This document shows, piece after piece, positions 1,734-13,194 of a DNA stretch of 13,194 nt; position 1 is the stretch's first letter; every line of letters starts with the position of its first letter. Below the pieces are notes generated by a model. The model did not search any database. It saw only the letters and a list, made by a program, of their open reading frames with translations, and was not told where the DNA came from. A program made the position numbers and the translations under genes. The DNA is taken from the IMG/VR virus record IMGVR_UViG_2537561618_000005, one strand, 5' to 3'. This DNA comes from a virus (Duplodnaviria; Heunggongvirae; Uroviricota; Caudoviricetes).

Positions 1734-2021
1734 CTACTTCTTCAGAAATGATTCGATGAATTCACGTCGAGGATGACGATAGTTCAGAATATCTTCTGGC
1801 ATCCTCATAAAGCGGTTGTTGCCGTCTTTGGCAGTAACAAAACAGCTGTGAACTCCGCAGACATCCGTTTTGATCGTGTCGCTATACTCAAAAAGCAACT
1901 GAGCCATCTTCTCTTGCCATTCTGGAGGCATAGCCTCCATGAATACTCGCGGCATCACGCAGAACGACGTATGCGTAAGACCAAACCACAGTTGCAGGTC
2001 TTTACGATATTCTTCATCCAT
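1734..2021 (-). CDS. Hypothetical 95-aa protein ([95 protein letters not shown]), family not recognised
   Basis: ATG (reverse complement of 2019-2021) preceded by AAGGT with 6-nt spacing. The ORF-track ORF 1734-2117 continues upstream only because the frame stays open into the IS911 left end. The stop is 45 bp from the IS2 right end. I could not assign a family from memory. Confidence 0.4.
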
Positions 2022-2085
2022 CGTCTTTACCTTTGTTGCAATGATGAAGTGGCACACTGAATTTGGCCACCTGAACAGAGGTGAT

Positions 2086-3284
<1,199 letters not shown>

Positions 3285-3292
3285 CCACTTCA

Positions 3293-4447
3293 TGGATGCC
3301 TGTTGAGCAGGAAGCGCCAACCCAGACTGGCTGGGATTTAACTGGCAACGCAACCGGGATTCTGGAACTCTCCGTGAAGTGCAACATGGGCGATCCGGAT
3401 AACGATTTCTTCGAGCTTCGTGCAGATGACCTGCGTGATGAGCGTTCTTACCGTCGCCGCATCCAGGCATCCGCCAAAAAACTGGCGAATAACATTGAGT
3501 CAGCGATTGCCAAACAGGCAACTGAAATGGGCTCGCTTGTTGTTCACGATACCCGCGCAATTGGTCCATCGACTGGCCTGCCTGGCTGGGATTTTGTGTC
3601 TGATGCAGAGCGACTGATGTTCTCCCGTGAGCTAAACCGCGACATGGGCATCAGTTACTTCCTGAACCCTGACGATTACCGCAAAGCAGGCCGCAACCTG
3701 GTAGATGGTGACATCTTCGGGCGCGTTCCTGAAGAAGCATATCGAAACGGTACTATTCAGCGTCAGATTGCTGGCTTTGATGAAATTCTTCGCTCACCGA
3801 AACTTCCGGCAGTTACCAAGTCAACCGCGACTGGTGTAACTGTTTCTGGTGCGCAGAAGTTTAAGCCGCAGGCATACACCCTTGATACCGATGGTAACAA
3901 AGAGAACGTCGACAACCGTGTTGCAACGGTGACCGTATCCTCCACCACCGGATTTAAGCGCGGCGACAAAATCAGCTTCATTGGTGTGAAGTTCCTGTCT
4001 CAGATGGCGAAGAATGTGCTGACTGATGACGCGACTTTCTCAATCACCCGTGTGATCGATGGTACTCACATCGAAATCACGCCGAAGCCGATTGCGCTGG
4101 ATGACGCGTCACTGACAAAAGAAGAGAAGGCTTACGCTAACGTAAACACCTCTCTTGCTGATACCACTCCGGTAAACGTTCTGAACGTGGCAACAACCAC
4201 CGCTAACGTGTTCTGGGCTGATGACTCAATCCGCCTGCTGTCTCAGCCGATCCCGGTAACCCATGAACTGTTTGCTGGCATGAAAACGTCTTCCTTCAGC
4301 ATTCCAGGTATTGGTGTTAACGGCATCTTCGCAACGCAGGGTGATATCAACACTCTGTCTGGTAAGTGCCGTATTGCTGTGTGGTATTCAGCATGTGCTG
4401 TACGACCAGAGGCAATTGGTGTTGGTCTGCCTAACCAGACCGCGTGA
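3293..4447 (+). pseudogene. P22-type major capsid (coat) protein gene, 5'-truncated by the IS911 right end (about 45 N-terminal codons missing)
   Basis: Translation [16 protein letters not shown]...[33 protein letters not shown]...[39 protein letters not shown]...[34 protein letters not shown]...[14 protein letters not shown] is collinear with P22 gp5 coat as I remember it. The homology starts exactly at the IS911 boundary, with no native start codon or RBS. Confidence 0.9.
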
Positions 4448-4491: not shown

Positions 4492-4716
4492 ATGACACAC
4501 ATGATCTTTCGTCATGGCGACATGAAGAAGTGGAAAGGCGTTGGCTACGACTTTGAAATCGTGAAAGCCGAAGAGCTTCAGGAATATCTGGATGCTGGCT
4601 GGTTTTCACATCCTGATGACCTTTTGAAGGATGTTGCAGAGCCAGAAGAAAAACAGTGTAAAAAGCCTGGTCGAAAACCTAAGGCGGCAGCAGATGAACC
4701 TGACAACGAAGGGTGA
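4492..4716 (+). CDS. Small hypothetical protein (74 aa) between coat and adaptor genes
   Basis: ATG at 4492 preceded by GGAGA. Translation [74 protein letters not shown]. Its 3' end overlaps the next gene start by 23 nt. Function unknown. Confidence 0.5.
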
Positions 4717-5194
4717 TTTAGTTCTTGCGGCATTACGTAAGCTCGGTGTTGCATCAAATGCCACGTTAACCGATGTCGAACCGCAGTCTATGGAAGACGG
4801 CGTCAACGACCTTGAAATGATGATGGCTGAATGGCTTGGCGGTGATGCGTCACCTGGTATCAACGTTGGCTACATTTTTGCTGATGCAGATGTTGCTCCG
4901 GATCCGGGCGATGAGCACGGTTTATCAAATAACGCTATCAATGCCGTCATTTTCAACCTTGCCTGCCGAATTGCTCCAGATTATGCGCTGGAAGCGTCTG
5001 CAAAACTTATAACCACTGCCAGATACGGGAAAGAGCGACTCGTCAAACTGTCTGCAATGGACAGGGCAAAAGCAGCTAAATGTAAGTCCGGTTATCCAAA
5101 CCGTATGCCTGTTGGTAGTGGTAACCAGTTGGCGAAGTGGAATGGTTGGAATTACTTCCACCGAAAGGAACCTTGCGATAACGGGAGCGAATAA
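4694..5194 (+). CDS. Head-to-tail adaptor protein, P22 gp4-like (166 aa)
   Basis: [47 protein letters not shown]...[29 protein letters not shown]...[11 protein letters not shown] resembles P22 gp4 from memory, with the same length and position directly upstream of the gp10 homolog. The stop TAA overlaps the next ATG (ATAATG). Confidence 0.85.
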
Positions 5195-6612
5195 TGCCTA
5201 TTCAGCAACTTCCGCTTATGAAAGGTGTCGGCAAAGACTTCCGAAACGCCGACTATATCGACTATCTGCCAGTGAATATGCTGGCTACACCCAAAGAAAT
5301 CCTGAACAGCAGCGGATATCTTCGCCCATTCCCGGGCATTGCCAAACGTTCTGACGTGAACGGTGTATCTCGCGGCGTCGAGTACAACATGGCGCAGAAT
5401 GCTGTTTATCGCGTGTGTGGCGGCAAGCTGTACAAAGGAGAAAGTGAAGTCGGTGATGTTGCCGGAAGTGGTCGTGTATCAATGGCGCATGGTCGGACAT
5501 CACAGGCGGTAGGCGTTAATGGTCAACTGGTCGAGTATCGCTATGATGGCACGGTCAAAACCGTCTCAAACTGGCCTACAGACAGTGGATTCACTCAGTA
5601 TGAGTTAGGTTCAGTTCGCGACATTACGCGCTTACGTGGGCGTTATGCGTGGTCAAAAGACGGAACTGATTCATGGTTTATCACTGACCTTGAAGACGAA
5701 TCTCATCCTGACCGTTACAGCGCACAATATCGTGCCGAGTCTCAGCCTGACGGCATCATCGGTATCGGGACATGGCGAGACTTCATCGTCTGCTTTGGTT
5801 CATCGACTATTGAATATTTCTCCCTGACTGGCGCAACCACCGTTGGTGCCGCTTTGTATGTTGCACAACCATCGCTGATGGTGCAGAAAGGCATTGCCGG
5901 AACTTACTGCAAAACGCCATTCGCTGATTCGTATGCGTTTATCAGCAATCCGGCAACGGGTGCGCCGTCTGTGTATATCATCGACTCCGGTCAGGTGTCA
6001 CCAATTGCCAGCGCGAGCATTGAGAAAATCCTCCGCTCCTACACTGCTGATGAACTGGCTGATGGTGTGATGGAATCGCTGCGATTTGATGCTCATGAGT
6101 TGCTGATTATCCACCTTCCGCGTCACGTCCTCGTGTACGACGCATCTTCAAGCGCCAATGGCCCACAATGGTGTGTGCTGAAAACAGGTCTGTATGACGA
6201 TGTGTACCGCGCTATCGACTTCGTTTACGAAGGCAATCAGATAACGTGCGGCGATAAGCTGGAATCTGTTACCGGGAAACTGCAATTCGATATCAGCAGC
6301 CAGTACGACAAGCAACAGGAACACCTGCTGTTTACTCCACTCTTCAAAGCGGATAACGCCAGAGTGTTCGACCTTGAGGTTGAATCGTCAACTGGCGTTG
6401 CGCAGTACGCCGACCGCCTTTTTCTCTCTGCAACCACTGACTGCATCAATTACGGGCGTGAGCAGATGATTGAGCAGAATGAACCGTTCGTTTACGACAA
6501 GCGTGTTTTGTGGAAGCGAGTAGGGCGCATCAGGAAAAATGTCGGCTTCAAATTGCGCGTTATCACGAAGTCACCTGTCACTCTGTCTGGCGCTCAGATA
6601 AGGATTGAGTAA
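5194..6612 (+). CDS. Tail hub / tail accessory protein, P22 gp10-like (472 aa)
   Basis: [48 protein letters not shown]...[18 protein letters not shown]. Length and N-terminus agree with P22 gp10 as I remember it, and the gene is in the gp4-gp10-gp26 order. Confidence 0.88.
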
Positions 6613-7409
6613 TGGCTGATTCGAATCTCAATGTGCCGGTAATCATCCAAGCTACGCGGCTCGATACATCAGTCCTTCCACGCAATATCTTCTCGCAGTC
6701 GTATCTGCTTTACGTTATCGCACAGGGCACTGATGTTGGTAACGTGGCTAACAAAGCCAACGAGGCCGGACAGGGCGCTTATGATGCACAGGTCAGGAAC
6801 GATGAGCAGGATGTGATTCTCGCTGACCATGAGCAGCGAATTTCTGCTGCGGAAGCAACGCTTGTTAATCATGAGGAGCGAATCAGACAGGCAGAATCAA
6901 CTCTTCAGGACCATGAAACACGAATAGCTCAGAATGAAAGCGATATTTCGTCGCTTGACACAAGAGTTCAGTCGCTGGAGTCGCAGGTTTCAGACCATGA
7001 AACGCGCATCGATGCTCTGGAGTATGCAACCACACGCAAGAAGTCAGAGGTTGTTTACTCTGGTGTATCTGTAACCATCCCGACAGCGCCGACCAACCTT
7101 GTTAGCCTGCTGAAAACGCTCACACCGTCATCCGGCTCGTTGGCACCATTCTTCGACACCGTTAACAACAAGATGGTTGTGTTCAACGAGAACAAAACCC
7201 TGCTCTTCAAGTTGTCGATTGTCGGCACGTGGCCCAGCGGAACCGCCAACAGGTCAATGCAGCTAACCTTTTCCGGCTCTGTTCCTGACACACTGGTCAG
7301 CAGTCGTAATGCGGCGACAACAACCGACAACATCCTGTTAGCTACGTTCTTCAGCGTGGATAAAGACGGCTTTCTTGCCACAACCATCAAGATAATCGCG
7401 GAGCAGTGA
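6612..7409 (+). CDS. Tail needle protein, P22 gp26-like N-terminus and coiled-coil core with a divergent C-terminal domain (265 aa)
   Basis: N-terminus [68 protein letters not shown] is near-identical in pattern to P22 gp26. It is followed by DHE.RI heptad-type repeats. The last ~110 aa ([25 protein letters not shown]...TIKIIAEQ) do not resemble the P22 gp26 C-terminus. Confidence 0.85.
6825..7020 (+). repeat. Intragenic periodic repeats (about 42 nt / 14 aa; GACCATGA-R units) encoding the trimeric coiled-coil shaft of the tail needle
   Basis: [14 protein letters not shown] / [14 protein letters not shown] / [14 protein letters not shown] / ... / [19 protein letters not shown] or CATGA-containing units recur at 14- or 28-codon spacing. 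Confidence 0.5.
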
Positions 7410-7864
7410 TGATTACATTCAAACCAACGCGAAACATCGACCTGATAGAAGCAGTCGGAAATCACCCTGACATTATCGCCGGGAGCAACAACGGTGATGG
7501 ATACGACTACAAACCTGAATGCCGTTACTTTGAGGTGAACGTGCACGGTCAGTTTGGCGGCATTGTTTACTATCAGGAGATTCAGCCGCTGACATTAGAT
7601 TGCCACGCCATGTACCTGCCAGAGATTCGCGGCTTCAGCAAGGAAATTGGGCTGGCGTTCTGGCGATACATTCTGACTAACACCACCGTTCAGTGCGTAA
7701 CATCGTTCGCTGCACGCAAATTCCGACACGGTCAGATGTACTGCGCAATGATTGGCCTTAAGCGTGTAGGAACCATCAAGAAATACTTCAAAGGCGTGGA
7801 TGACGTGACTTTTTACAGCGCCACACGCGAAGAACTAATCGACTTCCTGAATCACGGGAGATAG
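7409..7864 (+). CDS. Hypothetical virion-associated protein at the position of P22 gene 14 (151 aa)
   Basis: ATG at 7409 overlaps the gp26-like stop (TGATG). Translation [51 protein letters not shown].... Assignment is by position only; I cannot confirm sequence similarity to P22 gp14 from memory. Confidence 0.55.
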   Translation: MITFKPTRNIDLIEAVGNHPDIIAGSNNGDGYDYKPECRYFEVNVHGQFGGIVYYQEIQPLTLDCHAMYLPEIRGFSKEIGLAFWRYILTNTTVQCVTSFAARKFRHGQMYCAMIGLKRVGTIKKYFKGVDDVTFYSATREELIDFLNHGR

Positions 7865-7866
7865 CC

Positions 7867-8475
7867 ATGTTATATGCATTTAAGCTGGGCAGAAAACTGT
7901 GCGGCGAGGAACCTTATTGCCCTGAAAAAGGCGGGAAAGGTGGCAGTTCTGATAAAAGCGCAAAGTATGCAGCAGAAGCCCAGAAGTATGCTGCAGACCT
8001 GCAAAATCAGCAGTGGCAGACGATCATGAAAAACCTTGCTCCGTTCACGCCTCTTGCGGAGCAGTATGTTAACCAGCTTCAGAACCTTTCCAGTTTAGAA
8101 GGTCAGGGGCAGGCACTTAATCAGTATTACAACTCTAAGCAGTATAAAGACCTTGCAGGGCAGGCGCGTTACCAGAGTCTTGCTGCTGCGGAGGCGACGG
8201 GTGGACTTGGTTCGACAGCCACAAGCAATCAACTGGCTACGATCGCGCCGACACTCGGTCAGTCTTGGTTATCAAATCAGATGAGCAATTACAACAATCT
8301 GGCAAACGTTGGGCTTGGTGCGCTGCAAGGTCAGGCAAACGCCGGGCAGACGTACGCCAACAACATGAGCAGCATTGCACAGCAAAGCGCAGCTCTTGCC
8401 AGCCTTTTGGGAACATCAACGCCTTGGGGCGCTGGTATTGGTGCTGGTATCGGATTGCTTGGCTCGTTGTTTTAA
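7867..8475 (+). CDS. DNA-ejection (E) protein, P22 gp7-like (202 aa)
   Basis: ATG at 7867 preceded by GGGAGA. Gln/Asn/Ala/Gly-rich low-complexity protein with a Gly-rich hydrophobic C-terminus (WGAGIGAGIGLLGSLF). Position and composition are typical of the first P22-type ejection protein. Confidence 0.8.
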   Translation: MLYAFKLGRKLCGEEPYCPEKGGKGGSSDKSAKYAAEAQKYAADLQNQQWQTIMKNLAPFTPLAEQYVNQLQNLSSLEGQGQALNQYYNSKQYKDLAGQARYQSLAAAEATGGLGSTATSNQLATIAPTLGQSWLSNQMSNYNNLANVGLGALQGQANAGQTYANNMSSIAQQSAALASLLGTSTPWGAGIGAGIGLLGSLF

Positions 8476-8484
8476 GGGGTAATC

Positions 8485-9816
8485 ATGGCTACTTGGCAAG
8501 GAACAAACGGCGGATTGTTGGCTGGTATCGGCGGCGTCAACTCAAACGCTCCGAGCGTAAATGACATCGGCAATACGCTTCAGCTTATCAGGCAGAACAA
8601 TGATATTGAGCGTTCAGGCGCTAACAATGTTGGGCTGACTGCTTTGCAAGGTCTTTCAGGTATTGCGGGTGTTTTTCAGCAGGAAAAGCAGGCTCAGCGG
8701 CAGAAAGAATTTCAGCAGGCGTACGCTAATGCTTATGCGTCTGGTGATCGCGGTGCTTTGCGTCAGTTGGCTACTCAATATCCAGACCAGATTGAATCCG
8801 TTCGTAAAGGCATGGGATTCATTGATGAAGAGCAGCGTAATTCTATCGGCACCTTAGCGGCTGGCGCACGCCTTGCGTCATCGTCTCCAGAAGCAATGCA
8901 ATCATGGCTGCAAAACAACGCCGGTGAGTTAGCTCGTGTTGGCGTTAATCCTCATGACGTCGCTCAGATGTACCAACAGAACCCGCGGCAGTTCGGCGAA
9001 TTTGTCGATCACCTGGGGATGAACAGTCTCGGGCCCGAAAAATACTTTGACCTACAGGATAAAATGCAGGGTCGCCAGGTTACCATGCGCGGTCAGGATC
9101 TGGATTCGCAAACCGCCGCTCGGAATCAGGCAATCACAATGCGCGGACAAGATATCCAGGCGAATTTAGGTCAGCAGCGCATTAATCTGGACGCAGAAAC
9201 AAACCGCATTAACAACGAAAATAAGCGCCTTGACCGGATGCTATCAGCAGAAACTAACGACCTGAAGCGCCAGGAAATACAGAGCCGCATAGCAGCCAAC
9301 AACCAGCAGTTGCAGCAGAAGCAGCAAGCGCTAAATGATGGCTACAAAGACGGCATCAACACCCTCACAACCAGCATGTTCACTCTGAACGATATCGTTA
9401 GTTCTCCTTCACTTAAGAGCATTACAGGCTTACGTGGAGTAATCCCCAACGTTCCAGGCTCACAGGCTGCAGACACTCAGGCACGACTTGATACCTTTAA
9501 ATCACAAGCATACCTGACAGCGGTTCAGGCCATGCGAGGCATGGGCGCACTTTCTGATGCCGAGGGCAAAAAGCTCGACCAGGCTGTTGGTTCGCTGCAG
9601 AACTCGCAGAGCGAGGAGTCCTTTCGTCGCAACGCTGGCGTCATCCTGAACACGCTCAACCAGAAGCGTAATGAGGCGGTTGGTAAGTACGTTCAGCAAA
9701 ACGGTATCAAGCGAGTGGAAGCGCCTCAGGCTTCTATAGATTACCTGAAGCAGCACCCCGAGCTGTCAATCGACTTCATTAATCGCTACGGATATCTTCC
9801 ATCTTTGGGGCAGTAA
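8485..9816 (+). CDS. DNA-ejection (E) protein, P22 gp20-like (443 aa)
   Basis: ATG at 8485 preceded by AAGGGG. Translation MATWQGTNGGLLAGIGGVNSNAPS.... Gln-rich with internal TMRGQD repeats. Position and size match the second ejection protein. Confidence 0.8.
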   Translation: MATWQGTNGGLLAGIGGVNSNAPSVNDIGNTLQLIRQNNDIERSGANNVGLTALQGLSGIAGVFQQEKQAQRQKEFQQAYANAYASGDRGALRQLATQYPDQIESVRKGMGFIDEEQRNSIGTLAAGARLASSSPEAMQSWLQNNAGELARVGVNPHDVAQMYQQNPRQFGEFVDHLGMNSLGPEKYFDLQDKMQGRQVTMRGQDLDSQTAARNQAITMRGQDIQANLGQQRINLDAETNRINNENKRLDRMLSAETNDLKRQEIQSRIAANNQQLQQKQQALNDGYKDGINTLTTSMFTLNDIVSSPSLKSITGLRGVIPNVPGSQAADTQARLDTFKSQAYLTAVQAMRGMGALSDAEGKKLDQAVGSLQNSQSEESFRRNAGVILNTLNQKRNEAVGKYVQQNGIKRVEAPQASIDYLKQHPELSIDFINRYGYLPSLGQ

Positions 9817-11547
9817 ATGGCTAATTACCGTGATTTGTTAGAGCAGGCTGGCGCACGTTACGGTGTGCCAGAAGGGTTGATGACTGCACTGGGTGCCAAG
9901 GAGTCTTCTTACAACCCTGCCGCAGTAAGCTCCGCCGGGGCTGTAGGATTGACTCAGGTCATGCCTGGGACATGGCGTGATATGGGTTATACCGATGAGC
10001 AAATGCAAAACCCCGAATATCAGGCTGACGCTGGCGCGCGCTATCTGGCAAAGATGTACCAGCAGTTTGGTAACTGGCGTGACGCTCTTCAGGCTTATCA
10101 CGACGGTCCCGGCAACGTTATGAAGGCAAAGCGTGGTGAATATACGCCAGGACCTGAAGGCCGCGGTTACGTTGATGATCGCTTTGCTCAATGGGCTGGT
10201 GACCCGGTGACAGACTCAACAGTCGAACAGCGCGCCACCTCTGCAAAGGTACATCCTCAGCAAGACCCTAACAACCCGTTTGCACAACTGGAAGTACAGT
10301 CATCCGAACAAGTATCGGCATCAGGTGTGCAGTCAGACCCAAATAATCCATTTGCTCAGATTGAGCAGCAGGCAGCCAGTCAGCAGCCACCTCAACCCGT
10401 AAGTTCTGTCGCACCGAAACCTGTTCAGCAACAAACAGTTAATCAGGCCAATAATGCACCAACACGGGAAGAACCATCATTGATGCAACAAGCTGGCGAT
10501 TGGCTCACTGGTGGTCAAAGTGCAGGGCAAATTGCAGAACAGGCTGGTCGTGGTCTGGTAAACATACCATTTGACGTATTGCAGGGTGGCGCAAGTCTGA
10601 TTAATGCAATCAGTCAGGGGCTTGGGGGGCCAAAAGTATTGGATGATGTTTATCGTCCAGTAGACAGACCGACAGACCCCTACGCGCAAGCTGGAGAGTC
10701 AATAGGCGGTTATCTTGTTCCTGGAGCAGGTGTAGCTGGAAACATGGTCATTGGTTCTCTCGCTGACGCGGCGAATCAACGGGGTGATTTTGCCGAAAAT
10801 GCCGCTATTAATGCCGGACTTAGCATTGCTACGCATGGCCTGATAAATGGCGTTACCCGTGGTGTTCGTGGTGCATCAAATATAATTAGTGGCAATAAAA
10901 CATCTGCACAGAGAGCGACCACTGCGCCAACAGAAACATCACCATTCTCCGGTGATGCCGCTGCAGCAACAAATCCTGCGGTTCATGCCGCAGAGGCAAG
11001 AGTAGCACAAGGTGTACCAATGACGCCTGCGACGAAGAACCCAGAGGAAGTCGTTCGCACAGTAGCAGCACAAAAAAGGCCAAATCTCGCTTCATCGCTT
11101 GATGAACTAGATATCAATCCTCAGGCTGAAGTTCTGGAGTCTGCTGAAAGGCTTAATGTTGATTCATTACTCCCTTCACACTTTTCCGGGAACGAGCAAT
11201 ACAAGGCAGTTGAGCAAGCAATCAAGTCCCGTGCGGGTTCTGCTCTACAGGTGCAGGAAAATGAAGCAATCAGGCAGCTAGCACAGGGCGCGGGTGAGAT
11301 AATTGATCGCGTTTCCGGTGCAAAAGATGCTCTTGGTATGAGCGACAAGTTTATTGATACGGTCAATGGAAGAATGTCTGCGCTGATGAAACGAAGCGAC
11401 CAGCTTTATCGCAATGTTGAAAAGGCGATGCCTGCAGGTGCAAAAATTGATGCGCCATCAACAAGGTCAATGCTCAAACAGGTGGCAGAAGATCTTGGCG
11501 GGATGAAAAACCTTGACCCTATTGAAAAGAGAGTTGAGGTAGCCTGA
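9817..11547 (+). CDS. DNA-ejection / internal virion protein, P22 gp16-position, with N-terminal lytic transglycosylase (SLT)-like domain (576 aa)
   Basis: ATG at 9817 directly after the gp20-like stop (TAAATG). The N-terminal ~110 aa carry family-1 lytic transglycosylase motifs ([28 protein letters not shown], then AYHDGPGN). Two DPNNPFAQ peptide repeats occur mid-protein. Confidence 0.8.
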
Positions 11548-11598
11548 GTTTAACGGACACTCCTTCCTGAAATAGAATGGCATCAGAAGGAGCTAATA

Positions 11599-11618
11599 AT
11601 GAGCAGAAAAACCCAACG
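11599..11618 (+). pseudogene. Start of an unidentified gene (AAGGAG RBS plus ATG, MSRKTQR...) truncated after about 7 codons by the IS629-like element
   Basis: AAGGAG at 11587-11592, 6-nt spacer, ATG at 11599. The frame runs into the IS left end at 11619 and terminates 15 codons later inside the IS. Confidence 0.3.
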
Positions 11619-11672
11619 TGAACCGCCCCGGGAATCCTGGAGACTAAACTTCCTGAGAAAGAGGTAAACAGG

Positions 11673-11995
11673 ATGACTAAAAATACTCGTTTTTCCCCCG
11701 AAGTCCGTCAACGGGCAGTCCGTATGGTTCTGGAAAGTCAGGGCGAATATGACTCACAATGGGCGACAATTTGTTCCATTGCCCCAAAGATTGGCTGTAC
11801 GCCGGAGACTCTGCGTGTCTGGGTTCGCCAGCATGAGCGGGATACCGGGGGCGGTGATGGAGGGCTCACCACCGCTGAACGTCAGCGTCTGAAAGAGCTG
11901 GAGCGTGAAAATCGTGAACTGCGCCGCAGTAACGATATCCTTCGCCAGGCTTCCGCTTATTTTGCGAAGGCGGAGTTCGACCGCCTCTGGAAAAA

Positions 11996-11999
<4 letters not shown>
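11673..11999 (+). CDS. IS629-like OrfA (HTH / leucine-zipper transposase N-terminal protein)
   Basis: [108 protein letters not shown] matches IS629/IS1203 OrfA from memory. Confidence 0.9.
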
Positions 12000-12882
<883 letters not shown>

Positions 12883-12924
12883 GTTCACAGATAAAACACT
12901 CTCCAGGAAACCCGGGGCGGTTCA

Positions 12925-13194
12925 GTTGTCGAACCAGTAGTCGAGACACTGGGCGACCGTCATGGAGTTCTCCACCTTCTCTTCAAAATAAGTGCGTGGA
13001 TCCGTTCCTGAGAAATAGAGCTTTCGCAAGTCAGCAGTGATCTGTCTGGCATCCTTCAAAGACAGGGATGGGTATCGACCAAGCCCAAGTCGATTAGGCT
13101 TGCCATGCCAGCGATAGCGGTACTGGAACTGGATGACCCCCTTCGGTGAAATTCGTACGCTGAGGCCATCAGCATCAGCCACTTCTTGTGGGCC
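12925..13194 (-). pseudogene. Tyrosine recombinase (P4-type phage integrase) N-terminal arm-binding domain fragment; 5' end beyond window, 3' end truncated at the IS629-like junction
   Basis: Minus-strand translation ...GPQEVADADGLSVRISPKGVIQFQYRYRWHGKPNRLGLGRYPSLSLKDARQITADLRKLYFSGTDPRTYFEEK... fits the integrase N-terminal pattern (GL.V.V.PKG.K.F.YRYR..GK..R..LG.YP..SL..AR). The frame is open to the window edge. The terminating TGA is supplied by the IS terminus (reverse complement of 12922-12924). Confidence 0.7.

Follow-up and report, generated by a model that had tools for sequence, protein, structure and literature searches.

In a stretch of 13,194 nucleotides from the IMG/VR virus record IMGVR_UViG_2537561618_000005 (hereafter the window), we confirm that the open reading frame (ORF) at 9817-11547 on the plus strand, with a translation of 576 residues, begins with an SLT-type lytic transglycosylase domain. 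In our view it is highly probable that 9817-10191 specifies a functional-type SLT domain that forms the N-terminal module of an Sf101 gp13-type, P22-like ejection protein, would allow local, T7-like cutting of the cell wall and survives here as a relic. The orthologue, gp13 of the Lederbergvirus Sf101 (YP_009153087 / AII27837), has the same gene order and the same succession of SLT domain, linker, core and C-terminal module. By tblastn the two are 99% identical over residues 1-573 of the target, with six amino-acid substitutions before they diverge at residue 574. Whereas Sf101 gp13 is complete at 911 residues, the window copy lacks the last 338 and ends in three residues encoded by an insertion sequence (IS). 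The blastn match of the window to Sf101-type sequence stops at 11534 and the IS starts at 11535, leaving a truncated gp16-type ejection ('DNA transfer') protein ORF of 573 phage-derived codons, three IS-derived codons (E-V-A) and a stop. As a member of the P22-like gp16 family, it is thus a fragment, with an incomplete reading frame cut at residue 573 of 911. A preliminary description of this DNA had rightly put the protein in the gp16 position, but had overlooked the IS truncation.

Residues 1-125 (9817-10191, plus strand) form the SLT catalytic domain, of the lysozyme-like, family-1 lytic transglycosylase type, as delimited by Pfam, PDB-sequence, AlphaFold2 and Foldseek matches. An SLT-type signature had been read from nucleotides 9820-10150, which are residues 2-112 in frame +1 of the ORF and include AYHDGPGN, and the Pfam SLT profile (PF01464) indeed matches residues 7-110 (9835-10146) with E=1.9e-25 and 89.2 bits against a cut-off of 21.3. 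A search of PDB sequences ranks the catalytic domain of E. coli Slt70 first (E=1.8e-11) and also matches T7 gp16 (E=5.8e-4). The glutamate of GAKESS, previously put forward as a candidate catalytic residue, is Glu29 (9901-9903), and the alignments uphold its candidacy. With phmmer it stands opposite Glu478 of Slt70, the catalytic acid of that enzyme, E29-S30 pairing with E478-S479, and with BLASTP it stands opposite Glu37 of T7 gp16, E29-S30 pairing with E37-S38. We accordingly mark 9901-9906 (plus strand) as the codons of the E-S motif, a predicted catalytic acid with a conserved serine next to it. Across 83 aligned, diverse SLT homologues, E29, S30, G41, A42, G44, Q47, P50, A72-Y76, Y94 and G97 are invariant, and the GLxQ motif is intact in the target as GLTQ. 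An antisense ORF at 9838-10191 was considered as a gene and rejected, having no family match.

An AlphaFold2 model of residues 1-138, disordered from residue 129, has a predicted local distance difference test score (pLDDT) of 87 and a predicted template modelling score (pTM) of 0.81. With this model, Foldseek returned probability 1.00 to Slt70, Pseudomonas Slt, LtgA, MltE, MltC, MltD and MltF, a lysozyme-like all-alpha fold. The TM score was 0.75 for Slt70 and 0.72 for T7 gp16 (7eyb_I; root-mean-square deviation 2.7 Å); 7k5c_B was matched as well, and the T7 gp16 matches include both core-stack and ejectosome-tunnel structures. Among diverged phage copies of the SLT domain, the ratio of nonsynonymous to synonymous substitution rates (dN/dS) is 0.02-0.07, with dS partly saturated, a range that points to strong purifying selection on the domain.

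Beyond the SLT domain lies an acidic linker rich in Q, P, A and S (residues ~126-203; 10192-10425, plus strand), defined by composition, pLDDT and protein and DNA alignments and ending at the KPVQQQ recombination junction. As a region of the protein the linker measures ~95 residues, has an isoelectric point of 4.25 and is predicted to be disordered, with pLDDT below 50 from residue 129. It holds two DPNNPFAQ[L/I]E peptide repeats (10264-10287 and 10336-10359); a direct DNA repeat behind the two DPNNPFAQ motifs was looked for and none was found, the repeat existing at protein level only. The conserved gp16 core follows (residues ~204-353; 10426-10875, plus strand), common to residues 53-189 of P22 gp16 and recognized by identity to P22 gp16, by PF26808 and by a hydropathy scan, in which the most hydrophobic, Gly-rich segments of the protein fall in this core directly after the linker. 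Identity to P22 gp16 is 81% between target residues 221-353 and P22 residues 53-189 (E=1e-67), phrog_770, 'DNA transfer protein', matches with E=8.8e-107, and the precomputed Pfam record of the exact protein lists SLT together with PF26808 (Phage_P22_gp16). A protein search with the gp16 core matched short fragments, all carrying PF26808. The remainder (10876-11534, plus strand) comprises the first ~220 residues of the Sf101-type C-terminal module, with ~338 more absent; it aligns with Sf101 and with two loci lacking the SLT domain, L007 and L022, and is unlike the P22-type C-module. There are no cysteines in the whole protein.

The genomic context agrees with this assignment. The target is the third gene of a gp7-gp20-gp16 block, downstream of gp14 and the needle gene, and the same order is found in Sf101, P22, Sf6, IME10 and Dewey. 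The gp7 ejection protein gene (7867-8475, plus strand) matches P22_gp7, and that of the gp20-type ejection protein (443 residues; 8485-9816, plus strand) matches PF16928 Inj_translocase (E=1.1e-67) and phrog_2534; its TAA stop directly abuts the ATG of the target. These upstream matches, with the core identity to P22 gp16, substantiate the earlier placement, and by sequence and gene order the target sits in the gp16 position of a P22-type morphogenesis block. It is very improbable that the protein is instead a tail-associated lysin or tail fibre, or an endolysin of the lysis module. That alternative draws on phrog_21143, 'lytic tail fiber protein', on weaker PHROG matches named 'lytic tail protein' and 'endolysin', and on the annotation of NC_027398, which is also 'lytic tail fiber protein'. 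Such PHROG matches, however, are driven by the SLT domain alone, while the remaining protein matches phrog_770, P22 gp16 and PF26808. Further, the gene lies within the ejection block, upstream of the true tailspike in Sf101, and P22-like lysis genes lie elsewhere, upstream of the morphogenesis genes, according to the genome description in the Kapi1 paper. As a name for the target, 'lytic tail fiber protein' misleads. The profile of phrog_21143, the PHROG family that matches the protein best, has a length of exactly 576, that of the IS-truncated Shigella allele, and the family model may therefore reflect truncated prophage copies.

Fusion of a wall-degrading domain to an ejection protein, the T7 gp16-type arrangement invoked in the preliminary description, is borne out by the alignments and by Foldseek. 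T7 gp16 (internal virion protein D; 7EYB, 7K5C) is likewise the largest of three ejection proteins and the last of them, and has its SLT domain at the very N-terminus, with an extended segment after the domain and the catalytic Glu aligned. In other respects the two proteins differ. BLASTP aligns no more than the SLT domain (E=1e-8; 28% identity across ~130 residues) and gives E>1 for every other segment, and T7 gp16 has 1318 residues against the 911 of the Sf101-type protein, with no homology over the remaining ~1,150 T7 residues. T7-like gp16 proteins overall are 28-30% identical to the target SLT domain and share nothing beyond it, and a match to phrog_342 covers residues 3-238 of the target only. 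P22-like phages have also been reported to be without an internal core stack (PMC8954989). The best match in both sequence and fold is Slt70 (family 1A; PDB 1QSA/1QTE), whose E-S, GLxQ and AYxxG motifs are also found in the target, the last in the form AYHDG in place of AYNAG. Slt70, however, is an enzyme that the host secretes, and it has a large superhelical U-domain, whereas the ~125-residue domain of the target has no signal peptide and is fused to an ejection protein. Small bacterial SLT proteins are 40-54% identical to the target domain. Because the target SLT domain is closer to Slt70 and to these small proteins than to T7 gp16, we take the architecture to be analogous and do not regard the target as a member of the T7 gp16 family.

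In podoviruses the DNA must cross the peptidoglycan although the tail is shorter than the envelope. By analogy with T7 gp16, we envisage that in an intact phage the cysteine-free protein would be packaged in the capsid, follow gp7 and gp20 out through the tail in an unfolded state, and refold in the periplasm. There, the flexible acidic linker would tether the SLT domain to the hydrophobic gp16 core, and Glu29 may serve as general acid in the local cleavage of bonds between N-acetylmuramic acid and N-acetylglucosamine (MurNAc-GlcNAc). Through the opened mesh a gp7-gp20-gp16 conduit could extend as far as the inner membrane, the proposed site of action of the core and C-module. In T7, the N-terminal part of gp16 is the transglycosylase of the periplasmic tunnel and is needed with highly cross-linked peptidoglycan (PMC8954989). 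Likewise, the SLT activity proposed here would probably be most useful in a highly cross-linked wall.

Several observations weigh against such a role. The AYNAG motif reads AYHDG in the target, with H95 and D96 where at least 90% of the 83 homologues have N and A. Two relatives, L182 and L183 (2221-2595), with SLT modules 92-94% identical, show Gly instead of Gln47, a GLxQ residue that is otherwise invariant, and keep E29-S30. P22 infects without an SLT domain, the muralytic activity of its virion being ascribed to gp4, and since a gp4 homologue is present in the window as well (4631-5194), the SLT domain may be dispensable. A review, moreover, describes P22-like phages as lacking a transglycosylase, a description based on P22, Sf6, HK620 and CUS-3 only (PMC8954989). 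The two motif changes would also suit an SLT fold that no longer cleaves and is kept as a structural part of the trans-envelope conduit, either a peptidoglycan-binding anchor or a 'wing', and the N-terminal domains of T7 gp16 do form wings of the periplasmic tunnel (PMC8954989). We consider this unlikely. E29-S30 is invariant even in Hungariovirus-type proteins of 40-57% identity, AYHDGPGN is itself conserved across the target's own phage clade, and dN/dS among diverged copies is low; in T7 the same fold is both structural and catalytic. We favor a domain of functional type that would cut the wall locally.

The preliminary description also raised the possibility of a domain-shuffled variant, and this idea is supported. 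No SLT domain is found in P22 gp16 (609 residues) or Sf6 gp13 (665 residues) even at E<=1. These two proteins occupy the same genomic position as the target, with 33-57-residue modules of another type at their N-termini, and BLAST detects no relation between the C-terminal module of P22 gp16 and that of the Sf101 type. (The Sf6 counterpart had been given as gp12, mistakenly; it is gp13, and Sf6 gp12 is the gp20 homologue.) We fetched 80 viral contigs encoding the conserved gp16 core and classified the N-termini on complete ORFs, which revealed three alternatives on the one core: a ~200-residue SLT module (11 loci), a P22-type module of 33 residues (MMKVTANGKTF...) and a module of ~57 residues (MAKAWKDVIASPQYQ...) with which Sf6 gp13 likewise begins. 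From 'VQQQTVNQ...SLMQQAGDW' onward, proteins of 911, 743 and 767 residues show ~99% identity as far as the C-terminus, and their only difference lies in the N-module. The SLT module (residues 1-183, at least 99% identical) in turn occurs on three backbones, those of Sf101, of Dewey and Huey (an 875-residue protein), and of IME10, phiKp_30 and ECO26.1 (a 797-residue protein). The IME10 type has its backbone in common with Sf6 gp13, to which it is 97% identical from residue ~207. At the level of sequence, these comparisons show the SLT module to be one of three interchangeable N-terminal cassettes of gp16 in P22-like phages, and they support the target as a shuffled variant relative to canonical P22. 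At the gp16 position of IME10 itself (NC_019501 31064-33457; L083 4001-6394) we noted an unannotated 797-residue ORF with the SLT module and the Sf6-type backbone.

The SLT form is not common. The module was found on 47 viral contigs, ~33 with the Sf6-type backbone, 11 with the Sf101 type (four of them the Shigella truncated allele) and 2 with the Dewey type. As the P22-type core is encoded in 445 stretches, very roughly one in ten is of the SLT form, which is thus in the minority. The P22-like phages that do carry a predicted virion transglycosylase comprise ~50 viral contigs together with the cultured phages Sf101, IME10, Dewey, Huey, APC_JM3.2 and phiKp_30. The fusion is no recent, single event: the arrangement of SLT domain, linker and core recurs at 40% identity in a separate genus, Hungariovirus. 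There, C130_2 has the SLT domain at the N-terminus of a 1021-residue gp16-position protein, after gp7- and gp20-like genes, and this protein is 40% identical to the target through the SLT domain, the linker and the start of the core. It differs in genus, in its greater length and in a C-terminal region without detectable similarity to the target. The lytic podoviruses IME_EC2, Lumpael, Skarpretter, sortsyn and Kosakonia Kc259 have SLT modules 55-63% identical, annotated as 'transglycosylase / DNA transfer protein'. A recent origin of the module from a T7-like gp16 was considered and rejected, since identity is 28% to such proteins but rises to 40-54% for small bacterial SLT proteins and 55-63% for those of Hungariovirus type. 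The near-isogenic natural pairs, 911-residue proteins against those of 743 and 767 residues, offer material on the contribution of the virion transglycosylase and on the interaction of gp20 with gp16.

The unit of exchange is larger than the SLT module. DNA comparisons delimit a mosaic cassette of ~1.4 kb (9022-10420, plus strand) that is exchanged as one unit and comprises the C-terminal ~264 residues of gp20 together with the SLT module of gp16. The homology of the window and Sf101 to the SLT-less L007, L022 and Sf6 breaks within gp20 at 9021 (gp20 residue ~179) and returns at 10421-10476 (gp16 residue ~202-220), and homology to IME10 and Dewey is unbroken from gp14 to 10434 or beyond. When the last 240 residues of gp20 were clustered at a minimum of 70% identity, 59 of 59 SLT-bearing loci (some contigs being counted from both scans) fell into one cluster, in which no other N-module occurs; another cluster mixes both SLT-less N-modules. 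Independent sampling by the gp20 C-terminal part gave the same association, with all 50 loci at least 76% identical to that of the window then carrying the SLT module. Four of these 50 are co-diverged (76% identity in the gp20 part, 82-85% in the SLT domain), and the module is absent only after three outliers with 34%-identical gp20 C-terminal parts.

Such a cassette fits simple linkage, with no conserved sequence for recombination between the gp20 N-domain and the gp16 core. It also fits co-adaptation of interacting parts, by analogy with T7, in which the C-terminus of gp15 docks the N-terminal part of gp16 and its 'molecular tape' (PMC8954989). It is tempting to speculate, and we do so tentatively, that the cassette is co-adapted and provides some P22-like phages with a periplasmic tunnel of the T7 kind, the gp20 C-terminus docking SLT 'wings' and the linker. 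If this were true, mosaic boundaries would mark a protein-protein interface and not gene borders, and P22-like ejectosomes could no longer be said to lack a transglycosylase. As far as we could check, linkage of the gp20 C-terminal half to the SLT module has not been described, and we regard it as a modest addition.

The SLT-bearing ejection protein itself is already known at the level of annotation, and its kind is classical, exemplified by T7 gp16. Sf101 gp13 was deposited in 2014 as 'transglycosylase', and in RefSeq the name given to copies from E. coli and Shigella is 'lytic transglycosylase domain-containing protein'. The Sf101 paper makes no mention of an SLT domain, and in the accessible literature, which does not extend to the main comparative work on P22-like phages, explicit description was limited to gene-table entries in genome papers. 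The finding is real, its biology sensible but unsurprising. What matters for annotation is that the Shigella copy is a truncated pseudogene and that 'lytic transglycosylase' has been over-propagated to SLT-less proteins of the Sf6 type. Salmonella phage VSe13 (MT932212; L087 2276-4273) encodes a 665-residue homologue of Sf6-type gp13 that is annotated as lytic transglycosylase and has no SLT domain at E<=1; the name was apparently propagated from SLT-bearing relatives with a common backbone.

The window copy is a truncated relic within an IS-riddled, defective P22-like prophage of Shigella flexneri. The target gene is truncated by one or more IS3-family elements (11535-12923, plus strand): an IS end (TGAGGTAGCCTGAGTTTAACGGACAC...) comes first, and behind it lies a second element of the IS3 family, whose orfA occupies 11673-11999. 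RefSeq records that match this region at 99% identity carry the features 'IS3 family transposase' and 'AL1L pseudoknot' there, and loci identical to it have HTH_Tnp_1 and rve Pfam matches. We take the elements to be IS600 and IS629. Other IS elements flank and interrupt the window, within which no portal, terminase, scaffold or tailspike gene is present. With the last 338 residues removed by the IS and the packaging and tailspike genes gone, the target protein can have no ejection role in this genome. The remnant recurs in hundreds of S. flexneri assemblies; in complete chromosomes of this species it adjoins psiF-phoA-iraP-ddlA, with upstream decay that varies by strain, and a species-level genome scan added further S. 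flexneri and E. coli representatives only.

The exact 576-residue protein, named 'lytic transglycosylase domain-containing protein [Shigella flexneri]', occurs on 376 contigs and in 573 blocks of an assembly index. Its frequency, the intact SLT reading frame and a dN/dS of 0.09 against Sf101 might suggest that S. flexneri has kept the truncated allele for its own use, for example as an extra periplasmic remodeller of peptidoglycan. This we hold to be extremely unlikely. The N-terminus does not resemble a signal peptide, and a search for a promoter or terminator belonging to the gene yielded candidate sites at chance level, with nothing promoter-like above it. Phage lineages that diverged before decay set in account for the low dN/dS, the copies being separated by only 26 substitutions. 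The spread of the allele is what clonal inheritance would give in a young lineage rich in IS elements, and neighboring phage genes decay differently across strains. A decaying prophage remnant, inherited clonally, is the reading we retain for the window copy.

The remnant of the morphogenesis block is completed by further plus-strand genes of the window, assigned by Pfam and PHROG matches. The coat protein gene (3278-4447) is N-terminally truncated, its Pfam match beginning at profile position 47 and phage homology starting from ~3293; an IS3-family element (orfA/orfB, 1939-3284) adjoins this 5'-truncated gene. Downstream of it are the gp4 homologue (4631-5194), gp10 (5194-6612), a tail needle of Sf6 type (6612-7409) and gp14 (7406-7864). 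On the minus strand, right after the IS elements, 12924-13194 holds a fragment of the Sf101-type integrase that is 99.6% identical and inverted relative to Sf101, which indicates deletion and rearrangement of the tailspike/O-acetyltransferase region. Portal and scaffold genes are present in another strain's copy of the remnant (L088). The needle gene of the window encodes 265 residues, as opposed to 282 in other S. flexneri copies, and its match to the knob profile stops at position 152 of 175; the C-terminus of this protein is probably damaged, as judged from these alignments. The window gp7 gene has an in-frame deletion of 84 nucleotides at ~8400, giving 202 residues against 230 in Sf101 and other S. 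flexneri copies, and this deletion is common to some S. flexneri chromosomes and not to others.

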